Origin: Amphiscolops sp. MND2022
Taxonomy: Eukaryota
Assembly: GCA_964187785.1 (NCBI GenBank)
Contig: OZ076409.1
Location: 50,966,001-51,030,000, forward strand
DNA length: 64,000 nucleotides
Reading direction: 5' to 3'
Numbering within the stretch: the stretch's first letter is position 1; each line of letters begins with the position of its first letter. The notes under the pieces are model-generated. The model ran no database searches. It had not been told where the DNA came from and worked only from the letters and a program-made list of their open reading frames with translations. Shown piece after piece: positions 8,593-27,406 of the stretch. Made by a program: the position numbers and the translations under genes.

Positions 8593-8939
8593 TAAAGTAC
8601 TTGGTTGTGGTTGGTATTTTAGTTATATGAGGAATTGAATCTTTTACTGATGTTACGATTAGTACTTTAAGAGACACTAATAGAGCTGCAGTTATTAGGT
8701 CTTAGAGGGAAGACAACTAATGGGTGAAGAGTCAATTCAAGTTGTGTTCTAAATGAAGGGTTATAGTATTGAATATAAATTAGTTACATCGATTTATGGT
8801 ATTGAATATAAAGTGGTTACATCAATTATTTTACATCTAGAATATAAATGGAGTACAATTATAATTTTACAGTCTAGACATACACGGGGCGGGGGGATAA
8901 ATATAATTTATAGTATAGCATCAATCATGGTATATCATC
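8593..8939 (-). repeat. 3' LTR of giant element
   Basis: Matches 27060-27406 with one mismatch seen (taatGggt vs taatCggt). Contains short internal gtattgaatataaa..gttacatc repeats. Confidence 0.96.
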
Positions 8940-10228
8940 CGACCGGGTTTTGAAATTAAAAATGAAAGTAAACTGTGGTGTTAAGTTTAAGATTGATTAG
9001 GGTATATTCAAAAGTTGAGGTGTTGTAAAAATTGTCGGAGATTGGTTTAATGTAGAATACGAGAAAATCTAGAGAGGAAATATGGAATTTGGTTAAAAAT
9101 GAAATTTGGTATTTGCTGAAAAAAAAATTTTTTATCTCGAGAAAAAGTTGTCTTGAAATTGTCTTGAAAGTTGTCTTCGTGTTGTATCTTTCCTTACGTG
9201 AGTTGCGTGCAAGATTGGGAAGCGAAATGTTTTCAGATATTAGGTAATTTTGATCAATAAGTTAAAGAATTTATTTAGAGTTTTTAAAATAAGAATTTGT
9301 TTAGAGTTGCTTTTACGTTCATGTTGGTGATGGGTATGAAATTTCACATAAGATTTATTTTGGTATTGAATTCGTTCAAAATTTCTTATGTTTATTTCTT
9401 CCGAGGCGGCAAAAGATTTGAGTGGCAGGTAGGAGTGTGACAGAAAAAATTTTGACAAGATTTTGGCAGCCTGATTGACAGAGAAGTTCAACATTTAAAA
9501 CAAAAGATTCTTAGTTGTTTGTTAACTAAGCGTTGATCTTTTGAGTCTTGGCTTGTGAGCAACGAAAATGAAATTGTAGAACTTCAAAACAAGGCGGCGT
9601 GATCAGATCAAAGTTGGCCGCGAAAACAAATCTATGTGAGTCAACATTTGTTCAAATTTAGATCATGTGGCAGGTCATTTCACACATTTTTTTCAATAAA
9701 CAATATTTTTGAGCAAAGGAATTCAGTTGCAGAATTGGCAAAGAATAAAGAGTTTGTCAGTGAGGTGAGTGTGTTTGAATATGTGAATTGGGAAGAGTAG
9801 GGAAAAAAGAGGAGATTTTTTAGAACCGAAGTTATAGAGGAGTAAAGTTAAAAATGTTTTTGGGAGAAGGGTGAAAAACTGGAATTTAGTTGAAAAAAAT
9901 GTTTATTGAAGTGGAAGAAAATTGAATAGGAAAGGATAGCTCCACAATTTGGAAGAGAGTGGGTCGGAAGGGGCATGGGAATATGTAATTTAGAAAATTA
10001 TGTCCCGTAGAACCGAAGTTATAAGAGAAATTTATGAAAAATTTTTTTGAACACTTAAAAAAATTTTACATAATCATTAAAAAAGAAGTTGAAATGTTGA
10101 GAATAAAAAGGTGGGGGGGTGACAATCAATGTAGGTAAGAGGCGGGGTGAAATGTATGAAAACATCAAGAAGCATAGATAATTTTGAACAAAATGTACAA
10201 ATGAATTTAAAGAAACATGGATCAAAAT

Positions 10229-11146
10229 TCAATCGACATCGTTTAAAGAAGTTACTAAATTATCTAAATCATTTAAAGGAGTGGGGGATTGAGAGGGTGG
10301 TGTTACGGGTTCAATACGAATAGGAATTAATGCGGGGGAAAGAGGGAGTGGGGGTAAAGGAGAAGGACATGTATATTTTACTGGAACATGGGAACAATGG
10401 GGGGTAGCGCATTGAATGTAATTGTTATAGTTACAGCAATTATGAGAGGGGATTTGAATAGTTAATGGGGGTAAAGGTCTATGTGTGAAAGGAGGCGATT
10501 TAAATTTACGTAATTTTGAAGGGGGGAGTGTATTATTAATAATATCTAATTGGAGCGTAGTTTGATAAATGAGTTCATCTAAATGTTTTTCGTACAATTT
10601 GAGTGCGTCGATATATTGTGAAAGTTTCTGTTTATAGACCACTGTGTGGACCAGTCGACGGACAGGTGGACCGTTTCCATTTGAGAGCTGTGGAAGTTTT
10701 GGGTGCCGTGGTTTTTTGATTTGAAGATCGTTAGTTAATTGTCGAACAGCTGAATATTGTTGAAGATTGGGAGATGTTGCGACTGCATCTTGAGGGTGCA
10801 GGGGAAGAGTGGAGATTGGCAACAAAGTTGGATGTGGAAGAGAAAAAATCACGGGAATTGGAAGAGAAGGAGTTGTTGTCGCAAGAGAGCTGAGTGGCGG
10901 CTGAAGAGTTGTTGTGGTCACAAGAGAGCTGAGTGGTGGTTGAATAGTAGAAGTTGAAGAAACAGATGATGATGATGATGATGTCACAGACAAAGAAGTA
11001 TCTGATGATGAAACTACAGACGAAGAAGTATCCATGGTCGAGAGTGTGAATGTTGAAGAAGTAGAAGAGACAGGAAATGGCGTAAGAGAGTCAAGGAGTT
11101 GGTTAAGGAGAGGGTATGCCAAAGAAGAAGAAGGATAATCTGACAT
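10229..11146 (-). CDS. Accessory ORF of giant element, 305 aa, unknown function (S/T/P-rich, coiled coil, Cys/His cluster)
   Basis: Intact ATG-initiated ORF in the element's sense orientation. Helix KQKLSQYIDALKLYEKHLDEL and cluster HNCC-x7-C-x3-HC-x-H. Confidence 0.65.
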   Translation of the reverse strand: MSDYPSSSLAYPLLNQLLDSLTPFPVSSTSSTFTLSTMDTSSSVVSSSDTSLSVTSSSSSSVSSTSTIQPPLSSLVTTTTLQPPLSSLATTTPSLPIPVIFSLPHPTLLPISTLPLHPQDAVATSPNLQQYSAVRQLTNDLQIKKPRHPKLPQLSNGNGPPVRRLVHTVVYKQKLSQYIDALKLYEKHLDELIYQTTLQLDIINNTLPPSKLRKFKSPPFTHRPLPPLTIQIPSHNCCNYNNYIQCATPHCSHVPVKYTCPSPLPPLPLSPALIPIRIEPVTPPSQSPTPLNDLDNLVTSLNDVD

Positions 11147-11791
11147 GACTAAAACAAAATTTTTGTTGAATTATTTTGTATTTATTGTAGATACTAGAGA
11201 GCAGTTTAATATTGAGAAAGAAAATGTTGTGATGAAATTTATTGATTCCAGAAGATGAGTTGAAAATTAGGAAGAAAATTTGGAGTAGTAGTGAAGTTGA
11301 GAGATTTTGAAAAGTAAATGAGAAGAAGAAAATTTTAGAAAGGAAATTACTTTAAAAGTAATAAATTTAAAAGATAAAGAGCCTGTTGTCAAAATTCTTA
11401 AAGAAGAACGATCAAAAATGTCAAGTGAGAGTATTTAAATATAAAGAAATTAATAGGAAGAAGTGTCAAAGTGAAAGGAAAGTGGAGTGATATATGTAAA
11501 TGAGGAGGAAGGAAATGAAATTTTATGTATATATAATTAGGTATTATTGTCAAAGAAGATAAGATTGAGGAAGTGAAAAGAGTTATTGTTAAAGATTGAA
11601 AAAGAGTTGAGAAAAGTTTTGAGAGTATAAGATAAGAATCTTGGAGAAGAAAACGAATCATTAAACAAAAGAGGAGAAAAATGTTGGGAAATATAGGAAG
11701 GATTTTAATAGAAAAGGTGGGATTTCTTACCAAATGAGAGAATTACTGTAAGAGAAAGTAGACAGAAAAGAAACTCTGGAAAAGAAGAATG

Positions 11792-13441
11792 TTAAGATGA
11801 AGTCAATTGAGGAGGAGTTTCAAGTAAAACAAGTTTTTTGAGAAAATCATTAACATGAATTGTAGAAAGGGTCAAATTTTGGATATCTGAAGAATGAAGT
11901 TGAAGTAAAGATTGGAGAGTACGGAACGTGTCAAAAATGTGATTTAAAATAACAAATGGATCAGTATTAGGAGCAATTTCAACATGAGGGCGAAGAAGAG
12001 TGAGAATTTCGGAGACAAATTTATCTGTAGGACAAGAGAAGGAGTTGATACAAACATTAGGGTTTGTAGTCTGAAGCACATACGAATTTGATTGAGGAGG
12101 AATTGGTGGAGGAGGAGCCTGAGAAGATTCAGTTACTGTATTAGGAGGAGTATGTTTAGGAAGAGTTTGAAGAATTTCATCAGAGATATTTAAAGAGAAA
12201 TATTTATATTGTTTTTTCAAAATAAAGGAGGAGAGTTTTGCAATGATAAAATTAAGTTGTGCGAGAGAATAGTGTTTGTGAACAAGAGCTGTATATAAAG
12301 AGCGGGAGTGATCGTCAAGAGGTGTTTCAACTAATTTATTCATTTTAGGGAAGAAGTTAGGAACAGCGTTAGGAATATGAGTTGGGAGAAGAAAGTCATC
12401 ATTTACATTAAGAGCTTCTTGTGGAACAAACAACGGACGAGTAGGATCATGGTAAGAAGAAAGAATAAAATATTGTTTAACTGGATCATAGTTTCGAATC
12501 GTTCCAATAGTGAAGAGATGATTTAAAGAATAGTGAGAGTGGTAGGAAAACGGGGAGGTGAATTTGTGATTTTGAAAAATAAAATTTTGGGGATGTTTTT
12601 GTTCTAAAAACAGTTGGTAGGTTTGATGATGAAGTTTTTTAACAGAAGGAGTGGTGGTAATATCGTTTGGATTAGTATTTAAATCATACTGTGTTGGTTT
12701 AAGAAGATTGAATTGAAATTGGAAGAAACGAACACGATTATTTTGCCAAAAAGCAAGTTGTGGTAGGTTTTTGGAAGCATAGGCGACATAATGATCAAAA
12801 TTACGATCTTGAGGGAAGCGAAATTTATAAGTTGTGGGAGTCATATATAGTGAAGGAAGATTGGCTTTAAAATTGGGATGTGTGCGAAGAAATTCGTCAG
12901 TCATGGTATTAGATTGAGAAGGAGTTTTCAATGGGTGAAGGGTTGGAGGAAGGATGCCAGAGTCAATGAAGACGGGATCTTCAAGAATATTATATTTCTT
13001 TTTGTTGGGAATTTGATGATTGTCAACAGTAAAATGAAGGTTATTAGGAGGTGGGGTAGGAGAATGACGAGTTTTAAGATTTGTAGAAGATGATTTATTA
13101 AGAGATTGCGAAGTTGTAGAAGTACCATTTAAAGTGGGTTCTGGTGTGGGATTAGAATCAAGAGGAAGCGAGGAGTCAGTGACAAGAGGAAGATCGAGGG
13201 TACCAGATTTAAGAGAAAGGGGAGGTGACAATGAAACTATACTGGACAAGAGTTCTTCTTCAGCATTAACATTAGTCATTTTGAAATCACGAAGGGAGTT
13301 TAAGACAAAAGTTGAGTGCGAAACAAACGTACGTTGGATGAGTAGTTTGAAAAGGTATGTAGATGCAAAAGAGGATGTTATGAAATGTGAAAGATGAGTG
13401 ATTTTGGAGGAGAGAAGGAGAAGTGACCAAATGAAAGGCAA
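11792..13441 (-). CDS. Accessory ORF of giant element, up to 549 aa (first ATG gives MTNVNAEEE...), unknown function
   Basis: Long uninterrupted ORF in sense orientation downstream of env, with globular-looking central and C-terminal segments. Confidence 0.7.
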   Translation of the reverse strand: MPFIWSLLLLSSKITHLSHFITSSFASTYLFKLLIQRTFVSHSTFVLNSLRDFKMTNVNAEEELLSSIVSLSPPLSLKSGTLDLPLVTDSSLPLDSNPTPEPTLNGTSTTSQSLNKSSSTNLKTRHSPTPPPNNLHFTVDNHQIPNKKKYNILEDPVFIDSGILPPTLHPLKTPSQSNTMTDEFLRTHPNFKANLPSLYMTPTTYKFRFPQDRNFDHYVAYASKNLPQLAFWQNNRVRFFQFQFNLLKPTQYDLNTNPNDITTTPSVKKLHHQTYQLFLEQKHPQNFIFQNHKFTSPFSYHSHYSLNHLFTIGTIRNYDPVKQYFILSSYHDPTRPLFVPQEALNVNDDFLLPTHIPNAVPNFFPKMNKLVETPLDDHSRSLYTALVHKHYSLAQLNFIIAKLSSFILKKQYKYFSLNISDEILQTLPKHTPPNTVTESSQAPPPPIPPQSNSYVLQTTNPNVCINSFSCPTDKFVSEILTLLRPHVEIAPNTDPFVILNHIFDTFRTLQSLLQLHSSDIQNLTLSTIHVNDFLKKLVLLETPPQLTSS

Positions 13442-13593
13442 AAACGACTACAAATGAAATGGGAAAAAGGTAACGATATTTATAATTAGTATGTAAAGGA
13501 GGTAAAATATTAATATGTAAAATTGATTTGGAGGTAAGTGAATTAAAGTATTAAAATGCAGGATATGAATTGAAGAAATTAAGAAATGAAAAT

Positions 13594-16346
13594 TTATTCA
13601 GGAGGAAAACGGCAAGAAGAATAAACTTTGACAGGACTGTCAGAGGGGTCGAAAATATTATTAACAGAAGTTAAGGGGATGTCATTAGTTTTAATTGGTG
13701 GCGGAGTAGGGGGATAAAGTTTTGTAGATTGCCATAGGTTATGTATGGGGGAATCATTTGAAGAATTATCACAATTGGTGTCATCAGTAGGAGGAGAATT
13801 ATGTAAATATAAAGAGGAAGTTAATGAAGGTATTTGAGGAGGTCGAGGAGACAGATTATTATGAGATGAAAGGTGAGAATTATAATGTGGGGGTGGGAGT
13901 AAATGATCTTCAGTATTAGGGGAAGTAGAATGTGGAATAGGAGAAGAAATAGGTTTGCTTGGAGAAGAATTAGGTGAAAATCTTTGCATTGGAGTTTTGT
14001 TTTTTAAATTAAGGATTTTCGTTTTAATATTCGTATGGTATTTGGGTGGACGAGGTTTGGGACTAGAAGATAGAGTATGGGTCTTTGCCAAGGGGAGTGG
14101 GGGGAATCTGAATCGTTAGGATCTGATGGTGAATTGGATGATTTAATCATAGCAGTCATCATTGTTTGGGTAATGGTTCCAAAGAAACCAAAGCCTAAAG
14201 CAGTAAGTACAGAGATTTGTTTTTTAAGCAAATTTCGAACAGTAAATGAACGATAAATACTAAAGAGTGTATTGAAAGCAAATTGTAGGAAGAGAGCGGT
14301 AGAGAAATAATTTCCACATTGGGTTAAAATATAGCATGGGTAGCCAAAAAGTTTTATGAAAGCATCGGTGAACCAATCAGGTGAAAAAAATGGAGTTAAG
14401 TTAAACATATAGTCATGAAGACCAATTCGAAGTGAACGGTAAGGATTATCAGGAAATGAATTATTAGATTGTTGATTCATGAATTCATAGCTAATAGCTT
14501 TTCCAAGGAGTTGAAGAGTGTTGTCGGAGTGTTTAGTAAATAAAACACGATTCCAAAAATGTTTCAATTCTTTTTGAGAATAGATTCCAGCATCTTGAGC
14601 GGTAAAGGTGTTAGGACTAATAGCAGTTTGAATTTGAGTCGGTTCAAAAAGAAGAGGAGGATCTTTTTGAATAGGTTGTGGAGTTAAAACATAATATTGA
14701 TCAGTATCAGGGTCAAGAGATATTACATTTTGAGGATTATTTTCACAAGGAATTTGATTAGCATACTCAAAAGTTTGACGTGTAATAGGGTCAACATACA
14801 TGACGGTGTCAAGATAATTAACAGGAATTTTGTCATAGCATTGGTCTGCAATATAAAGAGGTGAAAGATGATGAGGGCAGTCGTATAGCCAGGCAGTAGA
14901 GCCTTCGACATATAAAAAGTTACTACGGTTTTGAGTTAAGAGAAAACCAGCAAGTTGTGGATTTTTTACGGACATGGCGAGAATAGTTAAAAGTTGAGTT
15001 CTTTCAACTTCACATATAGTATGGAGGGTGTTAAGTTCGGCAACAGACATGCTTTTAAATACATGATTTATAGAATAATCAATTTTTGTATTAATATGGG
15101 CTTCATAGTCAATAGTGGCAAAATTATTGGAGGAATTTAAAGCAGGAAAAAGAAATTTATTTTGGGTATGAATTAATTTTCCAGATATTAACTGGGTAGT
15201 AAGTTGATTATATTGTTCATTTTGCGGTAGTTGAAGAGGATTGGGTTTACCAGTTTGCATATTAAATCCTTCTTTATATGTTATAAAAAGATCAGGGTAT
15301 TGAGTAAGATGTAGAGGAGTCGGTTTATTACAAAACATTTTATTTTCAGGGAAAATTTCAAAACGAGAGAGACGGGTTTGAGATTTGGTATCATGATAAG
15401 GAGTATCGGTTGAAGTAGTGGAGGAGTGGTTATTAAAAAAGTGTTCGGTTTCAAGCCAATAGCGATTATTAAGTTTAGACATTCGGCCAATAAAGGAATG
15501 AATGGAAAATATTAAACAAAGGTCTTCAGGAAACCAAACAATGGTAAAAGGTGTTAATATAGTCGGTTTGCAAAAACCATCATCATGGAGGCAGGGTAAG
15601 GTATGTCCATGGTAAATAAGTTTGTTATCTTTATCATCATAAGTAATTTCAATTTCTTTAACAATGAGAGACCAACTATCTTTTTCGATAATATATTCAT
15701 AGCGATCCCAACAAACAGCTTTTTCTTTTAAGGTAGAATTTAAAACTAATTGGGAATTGCTTATCCGAGCAAAAGCACCATAGTGAAAGGTATTGAGTTT
15801 AGTAATACGAAAAGGAGGTTGTTTTGTTTCTAAAAGGCGTTGTTTTTGAATATCATTGAAAAATGTAAAAGAGTTGGAGTAATTAAAAGCATCAAGTTGA
15901 GGATTATTAGTACCATTTAAATGGCGAATAGCATGTTTACATTCGGTAGGATCAAGAGTACGGGGGCGTTCCATAGTATTTTGGTGATAATCTGTACGGT
16001 CATGGCGACGGTATTTGTAATCGGATTGGGCACAGACAAATTTTTCACGTTTAACATAGGCTTCACAAGTCCAGGCTTTAAGACGTTTAGCTTTAGCTCG
16101 AACAAAAACATCAACTATAGCACGAGTACTTTCAAAAGTAGAAGGAGATTGAGCACAAGGTTGGACTCTGGTAAGACTAAATTGTCTTAAATTGTGTTGT
16201 TTAGAACAGTCATAATGAGATACCAAGAGATCCGATATATGAGGATCGTTGGGATCCACATGATCAGGAGAGGTATTAATTTGGAAAGAAGCTAAGAATA
16301 AGGAGGAAAAGAAGTAAAAGAACGAGTGAAGAAAGGAAGAGAGCAT
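13594..16346 (-). CDS. env: Envelope glycoprotein, chuvirus-G / Tas-env / herpes gB-like (class III fusogen). 780-aa ORF with a probable frameshifted S/P-rich cytoplasmic tail (13594-14091)
   Basis: N-terminal signal peptide, then YDC...SLTRVQPC...C...C, CEVERTQLL...NPQLAGFLL, CYDKIPV...MYVDPITR...QIPC, GIYSQKEL. Multiple N-glycosylation sequons and C-terminal hydrophobic segments. Confidence 0.85.
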
Positions 16347-16347
16347 G

Positions 16348-17664
16348 TTAAAATTGTGCGGTATATTTTAAAAACGTTAGGGTATTAAGAAAAGTGATTG
16401 AACCGTGGAGAAGACGGAAGGGGGGATGGTCGCTGACAAAAAGGTTAAGATTTGTGGTAATAAATGGGTGAGGAAGGGATTTAAAATGAACTGTTGTATG
16501 TGAAGGAATAAGGTGGGGGCTTAAGTTATGGAATTTTACTGTAATTTCAAATTTGAGTTCTAAATTTGTATCTTCAAGACGAAGAAATTCTTTACGACGG
16601 CGTGCATCAGAAATGTGAGGATTTGAATTAAGTTTATGGGTTGCAAGGTAGAGAAAACGAGGGTCTTGGCGGGGGTGGTTAACAAGGGTGCTATTTACGA
16701 TTAGAGGGTAGTCGACACGATTAGGTGTAGGGGGAGTAGAGTATTGGTCAGTAGTAAGGTCAATATTAAGTATATGGCTGTCAGATGAAAGATTACTGGA
16801 GTTTTGAGAAGTGGGACGAGAGAAAAGGTGACCAGTGTGAGTATAAGAGGAAATAGAAGAGCGTTGAGAAAAGGCAGTGTCAATTCCGGAAGTTGGAGAA
16901 TTTGCTGTTAAAGATTCGGAAGAAAGAGATTGAGCGTGGTGACGTAAAAGAGAAGAGTTAGTGCTTGCAAGAGAAGGGGAAAGACGACGATTATTACGAA
17001 GGTTATATCTATGACGAAGAGGTGGGCGAAGAGTAGATTCGGAGGTATTGTCGAGTAGGTTATCTAAAGAAGAAGTGGTGTATTTAGAGGCGGAATTTGA
17101 AGGAGGGAGACGAGGATAGAGAAGAGAGCAAGTAGTTGAATCAACTTCGCTTAAATCAGATTTCTTTTGAAGAGAATCAAGGGATTCGAGAGCAGGAATT
17201 TTCAGTGGTTTAGTTAAGGGGAGTGAAGATTTAGAAGAAGTATGAGAACAAGGTGGAGGAATGGAAAAGGAATGATCTAATTGGGAACGTCTACGGAAAG
17301 ATTTTATGGAAGTAGGTATAAGAGTTGATTTGGGAATGTTTGGATTATTAATATTGCGTAGGAGAGTAGGATTAATATCACTAGGATCAGGGATATGAAA
17401 GGAAGGAGGGGGAGAATGGGCAGGGGTTATATCAAAAGGGAATTCAGTATCAGAAAGTGGGAGAGTTAAAGCAGTTTGAGTATGTTGAGGAACAGAAGTT
17501 TTAATAGGAGTGTGACTTGGAGTGTTAACAGGAGTGGTATCTAAAGAAGGGGTGATTGGTATTGGATTTAGGGGAGGTTGTTGAGGAGTTGGTAAAACAC
17601 TTTGTGATGAAGGTATAGTATCACTTGAAACAGAAGAAGAAGGTTGAGAGGAGGAATCAGACAA
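16348..17664 (-). CDS. Accessory ORF between pol and env, 438 aa (TTG start), S/P-rich N-terminus with a compact C-terminal domain
   Basis: Open frame ending 1 nt before the env ATG (TAA-C-ATG). Contains LYPRL and RYNLR motifs. Confidence 0.65.
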   Translation of the reverse strand: MSDSSSQPSSSVSSDTIPSSQSVLPTPQQPPLNPIPITPSLDTTPVNTPSHTPIKTSVPQHTQTALTLPLSDTEFPFDITPAHSPPPSFHIPDPSDINPTLLRNINNPNIPKSTLIPTSIKSFRRRSQLDHSFSIPPPCSHTSSKSSLPLTKPLKIPALESLDSLQKKSDLSEVDSTTCSLLYPRLPPSNSASKYTTSSLDNLLDNTSESTLRPPLRHRYNLRNNRRLSPSLASTNSSLLRHHAQSLSSESLTANSPTSGIDTAFSQRSSISSYTHTGHLFSRPTSQNSSNLSSDSHILNIDLTTDQYSTPPTPNRVDYPLIVNSTLVNHPRQDPRFLYLATHKLNSNPHISDARRRKEFLRLEDTNLELKFEITVKFHNLSPHLIPSHTTVHFKSLPHPFITTNLNLFVSDHPPFRLLHGSITFLNTLTFLKYTAQF

Positions 17665-18029
17665 AAATACAGTAAGATCCAGGATGGAAACAAAATGAAA
17701 GTTTATTGGGGTGGTTTTAGAAAATAGAAATTTGTGTGGTGTTAAAACAGAGAGGGTTAAATATGAAGGGATGGAGAAAGCTTATTATTGAGAGGAGAGG
17801 AGATATTGAAGAAAGGTTTGAGAAGATTTAAGACTTATTATTTTTTATGAAATCAAGTTTTTATTAGAGCAACCGTTCAGCTAAATTCAGCAATATAAAG
17901 TGAAGAAAGGTGCATAAGAGACAATTACTAATGACATTGTCATAATTAAATTGTCATTCGTCAGACTGTATTAGAAGTCTAGACTAACGTCAGTATGGAA
18001 GGGTAGGAAATGCAATTAAAATTGAATAT

Positions 18030-19812
18030 TTAATCAGGGGGGAAATTGATGTTTGGTTTGGTGGGATTATATTGTCGGGGGGGAAGTGAACGTAGATTAT
18101 AAGGAGAGTGAGGAGCTCGTGTGTAAGTAGTTTCATTTGGAGAATTAGGTATATCTAAAGGATCAAGTGAAGGAGATGAGGATGAAAGATTTGAAGAATC
18201 AGCAATACGAGGAAAGAATTGGGGGAAAGAATCATTTGAGGAATGGGAATAATAAATTGGATTAGGAAGCATTTCAGAGTCAGAGTCTTGAGAGTCAAAA
18301 GTAGTGTCAAGGGTATTGCGAAAAGAAGGAGAGGAGTGTAAAAAGTTTTCGTTAGTAGGAGTAGAAGGGGGAATATTATGTAAGTTATCTAGTGAAGAAG
18401 AATATCTGGAAAGGTTTTGATATGTAGGGATGGAAGTGGGGGAACTGTTATGTTTTTTATGATTCGAAGATGTAAGAGTTTGAGACTGATTTGAGGTTTG
18501 GAGTGGTTCTAAGGAGGAAAAGCGAGAAAAGGTATCTTGGTAAGATTCAGTATCAGGATTATTAATAAGAGAAGGAGTAGAGTAGTAATGTTTAATATAG
18601 GGAAAAATTATAGGTTCTTTGGGATAATATGGTAATAATATGATTTCGATGGGTTTGAAAGGTAGAGCCGTCTTGAGAAAGGAGTTCATATGTTACTTCA
18701 GAAAGATGGTTAATGATTTTATATGGGCCAATTCGAAGAGGTTTGAGCTTTTTTGAAAAGTTAACAGGTTTAAAATTAGTATGAATGACAAATGTATTAA
18801 GAGGTAATTGTTTTAGGTGAGTTGTTTCGAATGTAGAACTTTGAGAATTAAGTTTATGGTTTATATGACGATGGACAGTGGAATATATTTCTAACATTGC
18901 AGTCTCAGCTGCTAAAAGCCAGGAGGAGATAGGTTTTTCAAGAATTGAGTGAAAGAAGGGATTAAGATCGTGGGTGCTGTAATGGGAATGGGGGGGAAGA
19001 GATTCACAATAAGTTGCGATACAATTTTTTGAAGCATTACGAGGTAAGTTAAGAGAAAAGGTGAGAGGTATACGAGGATGAGTATGGAAAACAATCTGAT
19101 AAGGAGAAAGTTTAAGTTGAGAAAGAGGTGTCGTATTATGAGCATATGCATACATTTGTGTTTGAAATGACCAATTGGTAGGAGGATTTTGTAAAAAAAT
19201 TCGAAGATGAGTTCCAAGGTTTCGGTTTTGAACTTCAACTAGACCATTTGTCCAAGGAGAGTAAGGAGTTCGGGGTGAGTGATTAATATGAAAAAGAGAG
19301 CATAGATGAGCCATGTCTTGATTTATATATTCAGTACCTCGGTCTGTAACAAGATATTGAGGGGGACCAAATTTTGTGATCCAATGGTGGAGAAGAGTTT
19401 GAATAGCATATTTTGAAGTAATATGAGGAGCTGGGTTTGTAACGACAAAATGACTGAATGCATCTATGATGACAAAAATATAGGAGTTGTTTTGTGAAGA
19501 TGGAGAAATAGGGCCTTTAGTATCCATAGAAATCCGATAATTAAAGTGGGTAGCATTTTCATAAAAAGGAAGAGGAGGAGAAATGTTTTGGGGTTTAATA
19601 GGAAAATGCTTATTAGTTTGACATTCTATGCAGTCATGGATGAAAATTGAGAACCATAAAGGTAAATGAGGGATGAAATAAAATTGATTAAATGTCTTAA
19701 TTGAGAGTTTTTCACCGGAATGACCATGAGAATGTGTTTTACTAAATGCAGCATAGAAAAGTTTGAATGGTAGGCATATACGTGTTTGGTTAATAGAGGG
19801 TTGAGTTTTAAT
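18030..19812 (-). pseudogene. Integrase of giant element (HHCC, DDE, GPY/F, long S/P tail), two frameshifts
   Basis: HSHGH...DCIEC, MDTKGP, VTDRG, GLVEVQN, GPYKII. Shifts at ~19812 (T run) and ~18635. The tail ends PYNLRSLP. Confidence 0.9.
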
Positions 19813-22064
19813 AAAATTTCTTCAAAAACCCGAGAATTAGGAGTATAATATTGAATAAGATGAGAACTTGGATCAAAGTATAAATGTTGAAATTGTTTAT
19901 AATATGTATATAAAAAGGAGTTAGCTTTAATAACTGGAGTCAAGGAATGAGGTCTTTGTTTTTGTTTTAACCATTTAAATACTGTGGAAAGGACAGGATC
20001 ATCCTTTTGAGCTTGGAGTAAAATAGGTACTGTGAGAAACGTGTCAGAAGGAAGGAAGAAACTATCAAATGCTTTACGATGAGCAAAAAAGGAGGGGTCA
20101 AAAAATGGTAAAGATTGCGTGTGTGTGGTTTTTGGAGCAGTTTGAGTTATAGCATTATTTTCAATAGTACTATTAATAATAGGAGAGGAATTGGTAAAGT
20201 TGGTTATGATGTCTTGAGACAAATTGATATCATTGAAATAATGGTGTTGTATTTCGGTAAAAAGAGTGTGAAGTTCATGAGATGGTTGGGAATGCTGATG
20301 AGGAATACGTTTAAGAACAGGATCGTCCGTTTCGTATAAATCAGTTTCATTTAAAAGGGGGTTTTCTTGAAGTAAGGTTTTGACTTTATTTTTGACAGGT
20401 TTTTTGTATTTATTCAGGAATGAAGAAACAGATTGAAATGAAAAGGAATCTAAAGGAGTGTATTTAACAACATTGCCTTTATCTTGTATACGAAGTGTGA
20501 ATTGATCATCACCGTAATCAGCCAAGATTAGGTGTGAATCATTTTTTTGTGTAGGAAGAACATCTTCATGTTTTACGAGGTAGTGAATAGGTTGTAAAAT
20601 ATTGTTATTTTTAAGTTGAAGAAAATCAATATGAGGAGGAAGAGTTTTGTGTTGAAGTTGGCATGTTTGGGTATTAATAGTCGAAAAATCTCTACTAAGC
20701 ATATCTGCAACAGTAAGATTTGTACCAGCTGTGTGGATTATTTGTAAATTTGAAAATTTGGTTAATAACATTTGAGCTTTATATTGTCTAGGAGTTAGAT
20801 TACCTTTACGGGTGAAAAGGAAAAGAATAGGATTGTGATCTGTAAAAATAGTTATTGGAAATTTGGAGCCAATTATAATAAATTCATATTGAGAAAGGGC
20901 AAAGGTAATAGCGCAAAGTTCTCTATCATAGGTAGAAAGTTTTTGTTCTTGTGTTGTTAAAATACGAGAATTATAAGAAATTATTTGCATTTTATTTTTG
21001 GAGTTTGGTTGAAATAAAACTGCACCTAGGCCTATTAAAGAGGCATCGACAGTTATATAAAACGGATGAGTTGTATTTGGGATAGCAAGTTCTGCTTCTT
21101 TAGAAAGAGAAAGTTTGATTTGGTTAAAAAGTTTATCTAAATCGGGGGTCCATTCGAATGGAATATCATCATGGAGAAGAGTGTAAAAGGGTTTTAAAGA
21201 GATGTGTAATTTGTTGATGAACTTGGAGTAAAAATTCATTGATCCAATAAAGCGCATTAATTCAGTTTTTGAAGTAGGAGTTTTTAATTTGTGAAGAGCA
21301 TCAACTTTGGAAGAGATAGGTTTAATTGTATTATTACCGATTTCATGTCCAAGAAATTTGACGGTGAGGAGGATATAGAAAGATTTTTCAGGAGCAATTT
21401 TAAGATTATTTGTTTGACAAATTTGATGAAGTTGTTCAATTAAGGTTAACATATGTGGTTTTGTATGTGCGAGGAGAAGGATATCATCTATATAAACTAA
21501 TGCAAAACCTTGGTCAATAAGTTTTTGAAAGAATGAATACATTTGTTTGGTAAAGAAATTTGGTAAGCCTTTAAGGCCATAAAATCCACGGGTGAAAGCG
21601 TAAAGTTTGTCACCAGAAGAGAAACTTGTTAAAGTTATAGTTTCTTCATCTAAAGGAGCGTGGGCATAAGCGTACATAAGGTCAATAGCGGATTTGAATT
21701 TTTTGTTAGCACGTGCAAGTTGGGGGGCTAGTGGTTCAATAGGCCAAGATTCGAAAGATTGATCAGTGTTTGAATTAAGATGGCGTGCGTCTAAAACGAC
21801 TTTAATAGTATCTCCCTTAGGGATAATAATAAGGGGGTTTAAAAATGTAGTACCATAAATGGATTTGTCAGAATGAGTGGAACCAATTTGACGAATAATA
21901 TTGTGTTTTTCTAATTCATCAAGGAGTGTTTTTAATTTTTCTCTATAGTGAATAGGAACTTTGGTAGGTCTTTGAGTTTGAAGTTTAGCATTAGGTTTAA
22001 GACGAATTCTAAAAGGAGTAGCTATCCGGCCAACATCATTTTTATGTGTAGCGTAGCAGGATCG
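19813..22064 (-). CDS. pol: Reverse transcriptase + RNase H of giant element (in frame with gag-pro across one TAG)
   Basis: VLDARHLN, IDLMYAY, FYGLKGLPNFF, YIDD, VDAS, RELCAI, TDH, ADMLSR (Ty3/gypsy type). Confidence 0.93.
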
Positions 22065-25000
22065 CTATTTAACAAGAATGGAGCAAAGTTGTAAATATTC
22101 TTCATCAGTTACATCAGAGTATTGGAATTTAAATTTATGAAGGAATTGTTGAGTGTCTGGTGAATATGGTAATGATGGAAGAGGTCGGGTTAAAATTTGA
22201 GAAGGTTGCAAATTGTTTATTTCAATTTGAGGGTTTCGAAGAGAAGAACGTCGGCGAGGAGGTTTGGGTTCAGAAAGATCAGGATAATATGAATGAAATA
22301 CAGTGTGTATTAAAGAGTTAACATCATTAACTTTGTAATGAGTTGGTTGAATATTAGTGGCTGGAACTTCAATGTATCCAATAGATCCAGGGGCAAGAAT
22401 GGCAGAATGATGTGTGATATTTTGAATAATCACAGAACAACTGGAATGTTCGGTATTAGTATTTTGATATACTTGGAGGAAATTAAAGGTGGAGTTGAAG
22501 CGTGTGTTAAAAAATGGATGGGGTGTGGAAGGAAATATAACTTCATTATCGGAAGTTTTAAATGTTAAAGGAAGTGTTGGTTGAATTGGAAAATGAATAA
22601 TTTGAGAAGCATTTGGTTTAAAATAAACTTTATTTTTAACATTGATGGTGTATATGTAAGAAAAATATGGATAATCTTTTTCTTTATGAGCCGTAAAAGG
22701 GAGAGTATTGACACGAGATTCATGTGGGGTATTGAATGTTAATGACATGCTTTCAATATTGAGGGTTTTAACATATTTTTCAAAGAAGGGAGTTCCAAGA
22801 ATATTATATTTAATATTTGCAACTGCAAAAGGAATAACAAGGGTACGAGTATTTCCTTGGAGGGAGGTATGAAGTGTAAGTATAAGATTATGGAGAATAG
22901 GTACTTCAGATTTATTGGCGACAGTTAAAGTTTTATATTCATTTTGAGATGGGGAGTGTTTTGAACATTTTAAAAAATGATCGGCTAAAATGGTGAAGGT
23001 GGGTAAATTTAAAACACAGATGGATGCTCCACTGTCAAGTAAGAATAATAGTTCTAATTTAGAGGGAATAGAGGTATCTTCCTTGGGTTTAAAAAGAAAT
23101 AAATTAACAAACCAAGTGGAAGGTGTGAGAGCATTAGCATGTTCAGTAGAAGGTGAAGAAGATTGGGGGAATGGAGGATTAGGGTGGTACATGTTTATTT
23201 CAAAATGAGTTTGTGAAGGGGAGTTGCTTTGAATGGGTGGTGTAGACGGATGTGTAAGATTTAAGGAAGGTTTATATTGAGATGGGGAGGGGTGATTTGA
23301 ATTTGAATGAGATCGGCTACGATAACGATCATGGCGTGGTTTAGAAGGAGGACGATAAGGAGAAGTGTATCTGTTAAAAGTAGAAGTATTAAAGTTGGAG
23401 CCACGTTCACGAGAACGGGGATAATATTTAGATGGACTACGAGAAGAATTGGAGTTATAATATGTTCGTGAAGAAGAATATGGTTTAGAATTTTGATGGT
23501 AATGTTTGTCATATCTAGATCTATCACGATTATGAGATGGGGAATATGTACGAGAGGATGTTTTATAGTTGTATCTAGAGCGTGAATGTGAACGTGAATT
23601 AGAACGAGAATGGTAGCGATTGTCGTAGCGATTGTCGCGAGAGGATTTGCGAGATTGATTACTATAACTTCGACTACGGTATCGAGGATAACGAGATTTA
23701 TTTGAAGGAGTTTTAAAATGTTGATAAAAGGTAGGAGTTGGAGATCGAGATTGTGGTTTTGATTCTTTGAGTAAATTAAGGCGACGAAAGCAAGTTGAGA
23801 CAGAGTGATTATTTTTATGGCAAAAAGAACAATATTTTTTAAATTGAGGTTTGGATTTATTGTTCGGATCAATGACTTGAACGTGTGGAGGTTCTGAAGG
23901 AGGATCTTGAATATTTGTATTTTGTTGAAAAGTGGTAGATAAATTGTTTATTTCAAGTGAAAGTTCTTGAGTTTTAATTTTTTCAAGAGTGATATCTTCG
24001 GAATCGACCATATTGACAAGAGAGTGAAAAGGAATTGACGGTTCTAAAGAACTGGAAACATGTTTAACTTGGCGTTTGTTGGCAAAGTCTTTTAGTTTTT
24101 TTGGGAGACCACGAGTGAAAATTTCATTGCATTTAAGGTTAATAGTGGACGGATATTCATTGTACCATCCTTGTTTAACAAGTGTTTCGACTTTAAGAGC
24201 AAAGTGACGGACATTTTCATTATCTTTTTTAACAAGGGAGAGAGCTTCAATTTGAGCATGGTATGCATGTTTTTGAGAATAAAATTGTTTCTTAAAAATT
24301 TGGAGGAAAGATGACCAATCATCTTTATAAACTTGGGGGAGGCGATCAAACCAATTAGAAGCAGTTCCTGTAAGGGAACAGTATAAGAGAGACATTCGAC
24401 GAGAATGCCAGGTTAAATATGAGTGAATATCAGTAGGTTGAGGACCAAGTTGAAATGTTACTCGAGCACTAAGATGTGCCAAAAATTTTTCAGGAGGATA
24501 AGTATGGTCAAGGCCATCAAATAGTTTAATGGGATCAGAAAGAGCGGCAAAAGGGACGGAAGGGGTTGTGGGAAAAGGAAGAGATGGCTGAAGAGAAGAG
24601 TTGAAAGGTATTGTTGAAGTGGACAGAGTAGGTTGAGGGGGGTTAGGAGGAGGTTGGTGAGAATTAGTGGGGAAATTTTGAAAAGCTGGATGAAGAGAAA
24701 CATAAGGATTATATGAAGTGGGTTGTGTATTAGAAGAAGAAGTTTGGGTAATAGAAGAGATTGGAGGATGTGGAGGAAAAGATTGATTATGAAGAGTATT
24801 ATTGAAAGAAAGAGGAATGGGGGGTAATGTGGGAATGGAGGAGGTAGAGAGTGAAACTGAGTTGGGGGGAACAGTAGGTGGAGTATTAGAAGGTGTGTTA
24901 TATTGATTCGGAGAGTTGGAAGGAGAGAGGTTTTCATTATTTAAGGTGACTTGAGAAGTAGAAGTAGGATTATGTTGATTGTTAAGAGAGATGGGATTTA

Positions 25001-25934
25001 TTAAAGCATTTGAAGATGAAGGAAGAGTTTGAATAGAGATGTTGGAAGTTGTATCAGTTGAGGGAGGTAGGTATGATTGTTGAGTATAAGGACGAATAGG
25101 AGAGGGAAGGTTAAGACTTTTATTAAGACTATTGGGGTCATAGGCAAGATATTGAAAATGAGAGGATGGGAAATCAAGGAGATTATAATACTGTTTGTGA
25201 TGGTTATCAGAATTAATAATAAAAGGTAAAAGTTCATCTGAAGAAAACTGTTGAGGAAAATTTATACATGCATCTTGGAACTTTGAGTGCCAAACGAGTT
25301 GGTAGTTGTGTCTAAAAATTTTTCGGAGGAAGAGAGAATAAATTTGAATTTGTTCTTTGGTTTTTGTATTGAGGGTAAGATTTTGAAAGAATTGATATTG
25401 AAAATGGTGAATTTGAAGAATATCAGTTGTGAGCCAATGATGAGGATTATTTTCAATAGTTCTAAATTGTTCAATATTAGAAAGATTGAAAAGGGATTCC
25501 TTTTGAAGAAGGTCCTGTATGGAAGAAGGATTAAAAACATGTTTGGTTAAAAGGTTATTGTTTTCTTGAAGATGATTGAGGAATGTGGTAAAGACTTTAG
25601 CGATAGGGATGTAAATATTATTAGGGTAGATGTTTTTACGAAATGTATCGGAGCGATTTTTGAGAGAAGTGAAGGGAATAGAAAATGGGGGTTCTTCAGA
25701 ATTTAGAACTAGAGAATGGGTTTCAATATAATATAAATATGAATCATGGTGTTCACGAATAAGAGGAGCTGTATATATATCTTCAGGGTAGGTTTCAAAA
25801 GAAAGAGGAGTGGTGGAATTGTAAATGAGATTGTTAAGAAATTGAGTGAGGGTTTGTGAAACATCACGGGTAATACGTTGAGTGGTATTGAAAACAAAGG
25901 GGAGAGGGATAAGAGGTTCAATTGGATCAGTCAT
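22065..25934 (-). CDS. gag: Gag-protease polyprotein of giant element, 1289 aa
   Basis: ~300-aa N-terminal extension, P/S/T/N linker, capsid-like FDG...LTGTASNWF...WSSFLQIFKKQF, CX2CX4HX4C knuckle (CSFCHKNNHSVSTC), RS-rich tract, LLDSGAS protease. Confidence 0.93.
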   Translation of the reverse strand: MTDPIEPLIPLPFVFNTTQRITRDVSQTLTQFLNNLIYNSTTPLSFETYPEDIYTAPLIREHHDSYLYYIETHSLVLNSEEPPFSIPFTSLKNRSDTFRKNIYPNNIYIPIAKVFTTFLNHLQENNNLLTKHVFNPSSIQDLLQKESLFNLSNIEQFRTIENNPHHWLTTDILQIHHFQYQFFQNLTLNTKTKEQIQIYSLFLRKIFRHNYQLVWHSKFQDACINFPQQFSSDELLPFIINSDNHHKQYYNLLDFPSSHFQYLAYDPNSLNKSLNLPSPIRPYTQQSYLPPSTDTTSNISIQTLPSSSNALINPISLNNQHNPTSTSQVTLNNENLSPSNSPNQYNTPSNTPPTVPPNSVSLSTSSIPTLPPIPLSFNNTLHNQSFPPHPPISSITQTSSSNTQPTSYNPYVSLHPAFQNFPTNSHQPPPNPPQPTLSTSTIPFNSSLQPSLPFPTTPSVPFAALSDPIKLFDGLDHTYPPEKFLAHLSARVTFQLGPQPTDIHSYLTWHSRRMSLLYCSLTGTASNWFDRLPQVYKDDWSSFLQIFKKQFYSQKHAYHAQIEALSLVKKDNENVRHFALKVETLVKQGWYNEYPSTINLKCNEIFTRGLPKKLKDFANKRQVKHVSSSLEPSIPFHSLVNMVDSEDITLEKIKTQELSLEINNLSTTFQQNTNIQDPPSEPPHVQVIDPNNKSKPQFKKYCSFCHKNNHSVSTCFRRLNLLKESKPQSRSPTPTFYQHFKTPSNKSRYPRYRSRSYSNQSRKSSRDNRYDNRYHSRSNSRSHSRSRYNYKTSSRTYSPSHNRDRSRYDKHYHQNSKPYSSSRTYYNSNSSRSPSKYYPRSRERGSNFNTSTFNRYTSPYRPPSKPRHDRYRSRSHSNSNHPSPSQYKPSLNLTHPSTPPIQSNSPSQTHFEINMYHPNPPFPQSSSPSTEHANALTPSTWFVNLFLFKPKEDTSIPSKLELLFLLDSGASICVLNLPTFTILADHFLKCSKHSPSQNEYKTLTVANKSEVPILHNLILTLHTSLQGNTRTLVIPFAVANIKYNILGTPFFEKYVKTLNIESMSLTFNTPHESRVNTLPFTAHKEKDYPYFSYIYTINVKNKVYFKPNASQIIHFPIQPTLPLTFKTSDNEVIFPSTPHPFFNTRFNSTFNFLQVYQNTNTEHSSCSVIIQNITHHSAILAPGSIGYIEVPATNIQPTHYKVNDVNSLIHTVFHSYYPDLSEPKPPRRRSSLRNPQIEINNLQPSQILTRPLPSLPYSPDTQQFLHKFKFQYSDVTDEEYLQLCSILVK

Positions 25935-26170
25935 TAGGAGTGTCTATGAGGAAAATAATGTAACCAAATCCAATCCATAATAATATCAGGGTGAATTGAC
26001 GGTTCAATTGGGAGAGGGAAGAAATACCGATGAATTATTTGGAAAAGGGCAAAATAAAATGAAGAGAGAAACGAATGAAAGTATGTGGGTATTATAATAA
26101 GAAAAAGGGAAATGAAGACAAGTTGAAAAAGAGCGATGAAGGGGTTATGGTGAAGAAAAAGGAGGTTCAT
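25934..26170 (-). CDS. Small hydrophobic leader ORF (78 aa) whose stop overlaps the gag start (TAATG)
   Basis: ATG-initiated with two hydrophobic stretches. The minus strand reads ...tcc TAA TG act. Confidence 0.4.
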   Translation of the reverse strand: MNLLFLHHNPFIALFQLVFISLFLIIIPTYFHSFLSSFYFALFQIIHRYFFPLPIEPSIHPDIIMDWIWLHYFPHRHS

Positions 26171-26679
26171 ATAAAGATGGAGGAGAAAAGAAGGAAAGTG
26201 ATAAAAGGAAAAAAAAGGAAATAAGGGGAAGTAGAAAGGGGAGAAGGGAGAAGGAGACAGAAAGTTAAGAAGAAGGGGAATTAGTGAAAAAGGGATGTAA
26301 CAATTTTTTCAATGAGGAGCATTAAAAAAACAAGCATTGCAAAAATGTAGGAAACGAAAAGGATGATAGTGGCGAGGTTTTCAGTGAGAAACATTAAAAA
26401 AGATTATGTTCGATATTGGTCAAAAACATGGGGAATGAAAGGAAGAATAAATTTGTCAAGAAGAAGAAGAACAATGGCACAGAGACCAAGAAAGTAAAAA
26501 AGTATTAGGCAAATACAAACAGAGTCATTGAGGGAAGGCATAAAAAGTTTTTGGAAAAGATGAAAATGGAGAGATGTTGAAAATAAGAAAGGAAATGATA
26601 TAAAATGAAAGGAGAAGGGTTGAAAAGGTGGAGCCGTTAGAGGCGAACTAAGATACAAGGAGTTAAGGGGAAAAGGAAA

Positions 26680-26980
26680 TGTACCAGCGAAAAGCTGAAT
26701 CACAAAGGTGATTAGTACAGAAGGCGAGATTGTACCAGCACGGAGCTGAATCACAAAAGGTGATTAGTACAGAAGGGGAGATTGTACCAGCACGGAGCTG
26801 AATGACAAAAGGTGATTAGTACAGAAAGAATAGTGTACCAGCAAAAAGCTGAATCACATGAAAGTGATTAGTACAGAAAGAAATGTACCGACTACTAGGT
26901 CGAACCACGGAAGGTGATTAGTACAGAAGACTTCAGATTTGTACCGACAATGAGTCGAATCACGTTGTGTGATTAGTACA
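26680..26980 (-). ncRNA. Array of six three-way-junction RNA modules in the 5' leader of the giant element
   Basis: Sense unit UGUAC-U-AAUCAC-loop-GUGAUU-CAGC-loop-GCUG-GUACA. CAGC/GCUG changes to CGAC/GUCG compensatorily. Loops and linkers vary. Confidence 0.75.
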
Positions 26981-27044
26981 GAAAGTTTGTTTGAAAGAAA
27001 AATGAGAAAAAGAAAAAAGTGTTTTAGGAAAAGGAAAGAAGTGA

Positions 27045-27057
27045 GCTGGTCGCACCA
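27045..27057 (-). promoter_or_regulatory. Primer binding site of giant element (tRNA not identified)
   Basis: The sense strand reads LTR ...GTACTTTA-AC-TGGTGCGACCAGC. Confidence 0.65.
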
Positions 27058-27059
27058 GT

Positions 27060-27406
27060 TAAAGTACTTGGTTGTGGTTGGTATTTTAGTTATATGAGGA
27101 ATTGAATCTTTTACTGATGTTACGATTAGTACTTTAAGAGACACTAATAGAGCTGCAGTTATTAGGTCTTAGAGGGAAGACAACTAATCGGTGAAGAGTC
27201 AATTCAAGTTGTGTTCTAAATGAAGGGTTATAGTATTGAATATAAATTAGTTACATCGATTTATGGTATTGAATATAAAGTGGTTACATCAATTATTTTA
27301 CATCTAGAATATAAATGGAGTACAATTATAATTTTACAGTCTAGACATACACGGGGCGGGGGGATAAATATAATTTATAGTATAGCATCAATCATGGTAT
27401 ATCATC
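27060..27406 (-). repeat. 5' LTR of giant element
   Basis: Direct repeat of 8593-8939, adjacent to the PBS. Confidence 0.96.

Follow-up and report, generated by a model that had tools for sequence, protein, structure and literature searches.

The leader of an env-bearing Ty3/gypsy element of 18.8 kb in the genome of Amphiscolops sp. MND2022 (assembly GCA_964187785.1) contains a real, selected and structured repeat, an array of six tandem units of 40–42 nt that lies 77–377 nt after the tRNA-Met primer binding site (PBS). The element occupies positions 8593–27404 on the minus strand of the window, i.e. the whole stretch of 64,000 nucleotides that was analysed (contig OZ076409.1, 50,966,001 to 51,030,000), so that the RNA order of the array runs from 26980 to 26680 (Table 1). 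Judged from its sequence, the array best fits a repeated protein-binding site in the genomic RNA. With a probability of roughly 0.45, it may offer the element's own Gag a multivalent, family-specific platform for binding and would thus be a putative packaging signal. New here is a variant of retroelement leader RNA, in which sister clades carry different tandem modules in the equivalent place.

All features expected of a Ty3/gypsy element with env were found, namely an LTR pair, a PBS, gag, the order RT, RNase H and integrase, and an env-like ORF. A single mismatch between the 5' and the 3' LTR indicates a young insertion. Its target looks like a Bel/Pao-like element as read from the flanking frames, a family name that we presume to apply, and no clear target-site duplication was seen at the window insertion. 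The LTR (27060–27404) ends in TA instead of CA and has a palindromic octamer near the U5 end. From its G1–C72 pair, the primer tRNA-Met(CAU) is presumably of the elongator type. Three small hydrophobic upstream ORFs (uORFs; 25934–26541) precede gag, the last of them overlapping, in stop–start fashion, the likely gag AUG; small ORFs of a similar kind exist in clade C (see below) and in other tRNA-Met-primed families, and they recall small membrane or fusion proteins reportedly described for non-env retrotransposons. For the accessory ORFs of 477 and 551 aa, searches of Pfam, Atlas and PDB sequences yielded no usable match; the domains conserved in all three clades cover 11792–13447 and 16348–16780. 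YNLR motifs, which we take to resemble the chromatin-binding motif of foamy-virus Gag, are present in the 477-aa ORF (16348–17781) and in the post-integrase frame (18030–18692). Strand skew is very strong between 8900 and 27000, with a GC skew of +0.3 to +0.66 on the plus strand, and the RNA is accordingly G-poor and C/U-rich.

Table 1. Features of the window element and arrays of its two sister clades; positions refer to the window unless a locus is named.
Feature	Position	Strand	Remarks
5' LTR	27060..27404	-	starts with TG
Primer binding site	27046..27057	-	12 nt complementary to the 3' end of genomic tRNA-Met(CAU) with G1–C72 pair
Unit 1 (RNA order)	26940..26980	-	stem 3 CGAC/GUCG; 63 bits
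Unit 2	26884..26925	-	stem 3 CGAC/GUCG; U–G wobble in stem 2
Unit 3	26834..26875	-	stem 3 CAGC/GCUG
Unit 4	26783..26823	-	C–C mismatch private to window insertion
Unit 5	26731..26771	-	stem 3 CAGC/GCUG
Unit 6	26680..26719	-	stem 3 CAGC/GCUG
Upstream ORF 1, 45 aa, hydrophobic	26404..26541	-	AUG is the first one after the array
Upstream ORF 2, 37 aa, hydrophobic	26281..26394	-	
Upstream ORF 3, 78 aa	25934..26170	-	stop overlaps likely gag AUG (UAAUG)
Gag–protease frame	22065..25934	-	PF03732; one CCHC zinc knuckle, then Arg/Ser/Tyr-rich tract (candidate RNA binder)
RT, RNase H, integrase in Ty3/gypsy order	18592..22064	-	Pfam; reading frame broken in window copy
Accessory ORF, 477 aa	16348..17781	-	C-terminal domain common to all three clades
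Env-like ORF	14004..16367	-	PF24664, viral fusion glycoprotein
Accessory ORF, 551 aa	11792..13447	-	kept in all three clades
3' LTR	8593..8937	-	one mismatch to 5' LTR
Clade B array	L208:2407-2740, also L201-L212		unrelated in sequence to window unit
Clade C array	L215:3595-3860, also L216-L224		

A first-pass annotation of the window had reported six modules just downstream of the PBS. Their starts (in plus-strand coordinates) and their position were confirmed, and the switch of the last stem between CGAC/GUCG and CAGC/GCUG, the unit with GUGGUU and the C–C mismatch are all as described there. The proposed fold, consisting of a closing stem, an unpaired U and two hairpins, was recovered by a minimum-energy model for five of the six isolated sense units, the exception being the unit with the C–C mismatch. 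This mismatch is missing from all 29 other close copies, and in all young multi-copy subfamilies the U–G wobble of unit 2 is the most frequent pair. The sense array as a whole folds with z = -7.1, and none of 100 shuffles was as good. A model built from 70 of 126 eligible natural units matches the six window units at 50–63 bits, with no match above 14 bits elsewhere in the 64-kb window and none elsewhere in the 18.8-kb element; the array with its six strong matches occurs once per element and only after the PBS.

For a family-wide view, 565 units were parsed from 111 leaders, which fall into 44 subfamilies by LTR identity (median 68%). The hammerhead core motif CUGANGA is absent from all 565 units on either strand, in line with the earlier statement that hammerhead core nucleotides are lacking, and Rfam gave no match at gathering score for the window array or two sister loci. 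A Pol III B-box pattern, as expected of a tRNA-derived repeat, is present in only 10 of the 565 units. No extra complementarity to the primer tRNA outside the PBS, akin to the boxes of Ty1 and Ty3, was found, as 183 of 200 shuffles gave an equally good or better duplex.

Covariation was assessed with one leader per subfamily, comprising 205 distinct units. Five pairs covary, i.e. pairs 3 and 6 of stem 2 and pairs 2, 3 and 4 of stem 3, each unmatched in 2000 shuffles, a significance that is overstated, given that any one compensatory change probably goes back to one or a few events: parsing relied on anchors, unit types are inherited, and perhaps five independent double changes lie behind the signal. 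Watson–Crick counts at the five pairs, relative to the shuffled mean, are 145/102, 116/88, 163/97, 175/109 and 170/137. The covariation score amounts to 0.209, versus 0.129 in shuffled and at most 0.069 in slid alignments, and 94.9% of the alignment cells pair (90.8% shuffled, at most 45% slid). The number of pairs with double changes (6 vs 4.4 shuffled, with 59 of 500 shuffles as high) is not significant. Counted by subfamilies, stem 3 appears as CGAC/GUCG (36), CAGC/GCUG (26), CGAU/AUCG (10), CGAC/GUUG (9) and CAAC/GUUG (6), and stem 2 as AAUC/GAUU, AAUC/GGUU or AACC/GGUU, with G–U intermediates between stem types. Among subfamilies with at least four copies, shared and hence inherited variants number 2 in stems and 12 in loops, compared with 22 and 13, respectively, for singletons (Fisher p=0.004). 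Both the covariation of stems 2 and 3 and this depletion of inherited stem variants support selection on base pairing of a single strand, as had been proposed from the window alone.

As the closing stem is invariant and therefore lacks covariation, the three-way junction of the first-pass annotation is likely rather than proven, the alternative being a register-shifted chain of hairpins. Within the array, base pairs of the closing stem can alternatively form across adjacent units, and such inter-unit pairing around one very large junction is what the energy model favours: this closed wheel is assigned -85.1 kcal/mol, compared with -70.7 kcal/mol for six separate junctions and -69.1 kcal/mol for the open chain. 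The wheel is presumably a model artefact, because it would join about 18 stems at one junction in which six bases are unpaired. The arms at the array ends are kept like the inner ones (36/42 and 32/42 vs 131/170 and 132/170), which favours self-contained units; the outer pair fits the inter-unit register slightly better (131/155 vs 122/155).

The antisense strand folds as well as the sense strand (z = -7.2). A cue to the strand comes from wobble pairs: all three subfamilies with at least five comparable copies have one U–G and no A–C among their commonest pairs, but in an older unit type C–A recurs at the wobble position with 12 subfamily counts versus 21 for U–G. The free variation that the first-pass annotation ascribed to the linkers was not borne out, since UUC, the three unpaired bases before each unit, is 84–91% conserved; this implies that sequence is read as well as shape. 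Loops contain just 7–8% G, and U is the one unpaired junction base that is conserved. The 5' arm is invariant and reads UACUAAY, a motif similar to a branch point that the earlier inspection had missed.

Within the clade, the array is an ancient feature. In the searched genome of 1.07 Gb in 1929 contigs, unit patterns gave 911 and 1451 matches versus 0 and 7 for reversed controls. For a choice of loci blind to the array, a pattern of LTR end plus PBS was used, which has 273 matches, and 70 loci were examined (one being the window element and two overlapping). At least three units are present in 63 of these, two units in one, a single unit in another and none in five; of the array-less loci, two carry distinct internal deletions, one shows a tRNA read-through, one retains a single unit and one has an old array that has decayed. 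It had been suggested that absence of the array from intact active copies would speak against the proposal, and the array, with 4–6 units, is present in each of the 12 copies checked whose gag-pol frame of 2637–2640 aa is uninterrupted. Likewise, all 30 close loci examined out of 41 matching loci, the window copy included, have six units. Across the family, arrays comprise about 3 to 8 units, and older subfamilies have a common ordered array of about seven unit types.

Outside the clade, the unit was not detected in 27 loci of other tRNA-Met-primed families of the same genome (best E 2.3), and the sole strong match in the scan of tRNA-Met-primed loci, L161, is a copy from the clade itself. A scan of public metagenomes gave no matches, and a viral scan gave 14 single matches, none in arrays and none with the unit fold. 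Array-less copies each have a different junction, none seen twice in these small samples. At five loci (L174, L225, L226, L232 and L233) primer-tRNA sequence lengthens the PBS, which is fused to a distant or foreign site, probably as a result of errors in reverse transcription. Five others (L242, L243, L123, L131 and L246) are decayed copies with local tandem amplification of LTR–PBS–array blocks. Loci with repeated PBS-plus-array blocks are such local duplications in decayed copies and give no indication as to non-autonomous mobility.

Among RT relatives, 593 matches in several lineages were obtained, none of them named among the 120 matches listed; the genome of the window contains no close copy of P0048, the nearest outside relative. 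Two sister clades, B and C, reside in this genome with 67–75% RT identity and the same gene layout, including gag-pol, env, the two accessory ORFs and one knuckle with an RS tract. The window-type unit is missing from both clades (best E 0.07), with a weak model match (E 0.13–0.2) at the end of the clade C array. At the same place in the leader, however, other tandem hairpin modules are found, i.e. a clade-specific replacement, albeit with weaker support than for the window array. In clade B (RT 67–73%), all 11 leaders recovered have 5–7 tandem hairpins after the PBS, whose closing stems are ACCG/CGGU or ACUG/CAGU; the internal loop is fixed, a U–G pair on the sense strand is constant, and three different upper stems occur. 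In clade C (RT 74–75%), at least four bulged hairpins follow the PBS in nine of ten copies with long gag-pol; these have a 6-nt 3' bulge and a lower stem CUGAC/GUCAG or CCAAC/GUUGG, which is a compensated change. One clade C copy, L218, has a long gag-pol frame yet no array, and four further array-less copies, from 4 of 9 matches, differ from one another in their junctions. Neither sister array stands out by its stability (z = 0.4 and 0.0).

How could such an array be used? Position, single occurrence per element genome and replacement between clades suggest a reader encoded by the element, because a factor of the host would be expected to meet one common motif in every clade. Gag would be the default reader, with an accessory protein as the main rival. 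As in retroviral Psi, the array is found once, 3' of the PBS, and its secondary structure is conserved, with compensatory changes that concern stems 2 and 3 (the closing stem being invariant); conserved exposed guanosines for zinc-knuckle binding were not found. In this packaging reading, action as RNA rather than DNA, the junction topology, the binder and the function are what we infer. The array would likely fold in the genomic RNA, where each unit could present one fixed surface made up of the invariant closing stem, the bulged U, the junction pairs and the preceding UUC, with loops and outer pairs as spacers. Several bound Gag molecules may then nucleate assembly on array RNA and might also slow scanning toward the upstream ORFs and gag. 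Sister clades would avoid cross-packaging through their different repeated modules. Zinc knuckles usually contact an exposed G, according to the sections considered of PMC7599994. The G-poor loops argue against such classical knuckle-G recognition, so that the RS tract or another part of Gag would have to read the junction. It also speaks against packaging that the knuckles of the three clades are similar though the modules differ. A wider scenario, possible but rather doubtful, is that co-resident giant env-bearing gypsy clades tag their genomic RNA with different tandem structural barcodes, each read by a co-evolving protein of the same element. Three-way junctions, internal-loop hairpins or bulged hairpins would, equally tentatively, serve as modules of a self-recognition code against cross-packaging.

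Less probable than recognition by Gag, a site similar to RRE or TAR would have the 477-aa or 551-aa protein multimerise on the RNA for export or stability of the unspliced genome or for activation of transcription. Both accessory ORFs are kept in the three clades at 32–43% identity and diverge more than RT, as the partner of a changing RNA module might, but Gag diverges to a similar degree (56–61% in the core, about 40% in the N-terminal part). The array is near the 5' end, and the modules of clades B and C are bulged or internal-loop hairpins, the shape of TAR- and CTE-type sites. Against this role, neither ORF could be assigned to an RNA-binding family or fold by the sequence searches mentioned above.

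The UACUAAY motif raises the improbable alternative of a site for a host splicing factor or STAR protein, in which the fold masks or displays a branch point or a binding site for SF1 or QKI and thereby controls splicing, trans-splicing or nuclear fate. ACUAAY is contained in 490 of 565 units and occurs in six copies within 600 nt after the PBS versus four in the next 6000 nt, conservation extends into the unpaired upstream UUC, and tandem UACUAAC repeats of the lncRNA Gomafu are bound by SF1 (PMC8005942, in the part considered). Yet ACUAAY is missing from the first 600 nt of both sister leaders tested, the motif is predicted to be paired except for one U, and only units of the CAGC type offer an AG at the distance of a branch point.

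Control of translation, with the array as an IRES-like or scanning-control element for the three uORFs and gag, appears a little more improbable still. Although uORF1 comes immediately after the array, whose linkers are pyrimidine-rich and which has no coding AUG before it, and gag follows three uORFs with a stop–start overlap, an IRES is not needed so close to the presumed cap, the copy number varies from about 3 to 8, and no Rfam IRES was matched.

That the repeats are double-stranded DNA sites, i.e. insulators or enhancers with an incidental fold, seems very unlikely. Tandem 5' UTR repeats are present in 19 of 49 Drosophila LTR elements and some of these bind host proteins as DNA, as stated in the part covered of PMC8872304, and strand-symmetric folding together with an invariant 5' arm would fit a sequence motif. 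A duplex, however, requires no compensatory changes at five pairs of stems 2 and 3, nor loops of variable length next to fixed stems. Neutral slippage duplication of a palindrome-rich unit, for which the recent gain and loss of units (close copies have 5 to 8) could be invoked, is hardly credible and largely refuted by covariation, stem-biased purifying selection and maintenance of the array across 44 subfamilies at 68% median LTR identity.

Packaging signals of Ty3/gypsy elements are poorly defined, and the known retroviral ones are single complex folds. Hence, a repeated unit of 40 nt, for which sister clades within the same genome supply three natural alternatives, offers a small testable system for self-RNA recognition and specificity change. 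Moreover, other LTR elements have tandem repeats in the 5' UTR that have until now been interpreted as DNA insulators and deserve re-examination as RNA structures.

Several known systems invite comparison. HIV RRE and TAR as well as the MPMV CTE are structured cis-acting RNAs with repeated protein sites in complex retroelements with accessory ORFs, to which the window array has no sequence or Rfam match. Among the Drosophila elements gypsy, ZAM, Tirant and accord, several bear env. Like the window element, these four belong to Ty3/gypsy and have tandem repeats between PBS and gag; they are described as DNA insulator, enhancer or RpL22 sites, secondary structure is never mentioned in the article concerned (PMC8872304), and the window stems, in contrast, covary. 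Two articles that treat env-bearing gypsy elements, PMC13524379 (in which UTR and stem-loop have 0 occurrences) and PMC4402516, contain no leader arrays in the parts covered, and no published description of such an array was found in a search of mainly open-access main texts. Gomafu/MIAT shares the tandem UACUAAY motifs but is a host lncRNA (PMC8005942, same part), whereas the window motif is predicted to be paired inside a fold and sister clades lack it. The closest parallels come from retroviruses, whose core packaging signals sit in the leader (here and below, PMC7599994 in the sections considered). MoMuLV SL-C and SL-D are similar stem-loops in tandem within a packaging signal, but they are two hairpins with conserved GACG loops, whereas in the window array the loops vary and the junction is conserved. 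The RSV muPsi and the HIV-1 Psi-CES are three-way junctions in leader RNA bound by NC, a structure that is predicted here as well, and RSV also has three upstream ORFs like the window element with its CCHC zinc knuckle. Each of these retroviral signals is one unique fold that offers exposed G or A contacts, whereas the window array repeats a 40-nt module about 3–8 times, with one unpaired junction U and G-poor loops.
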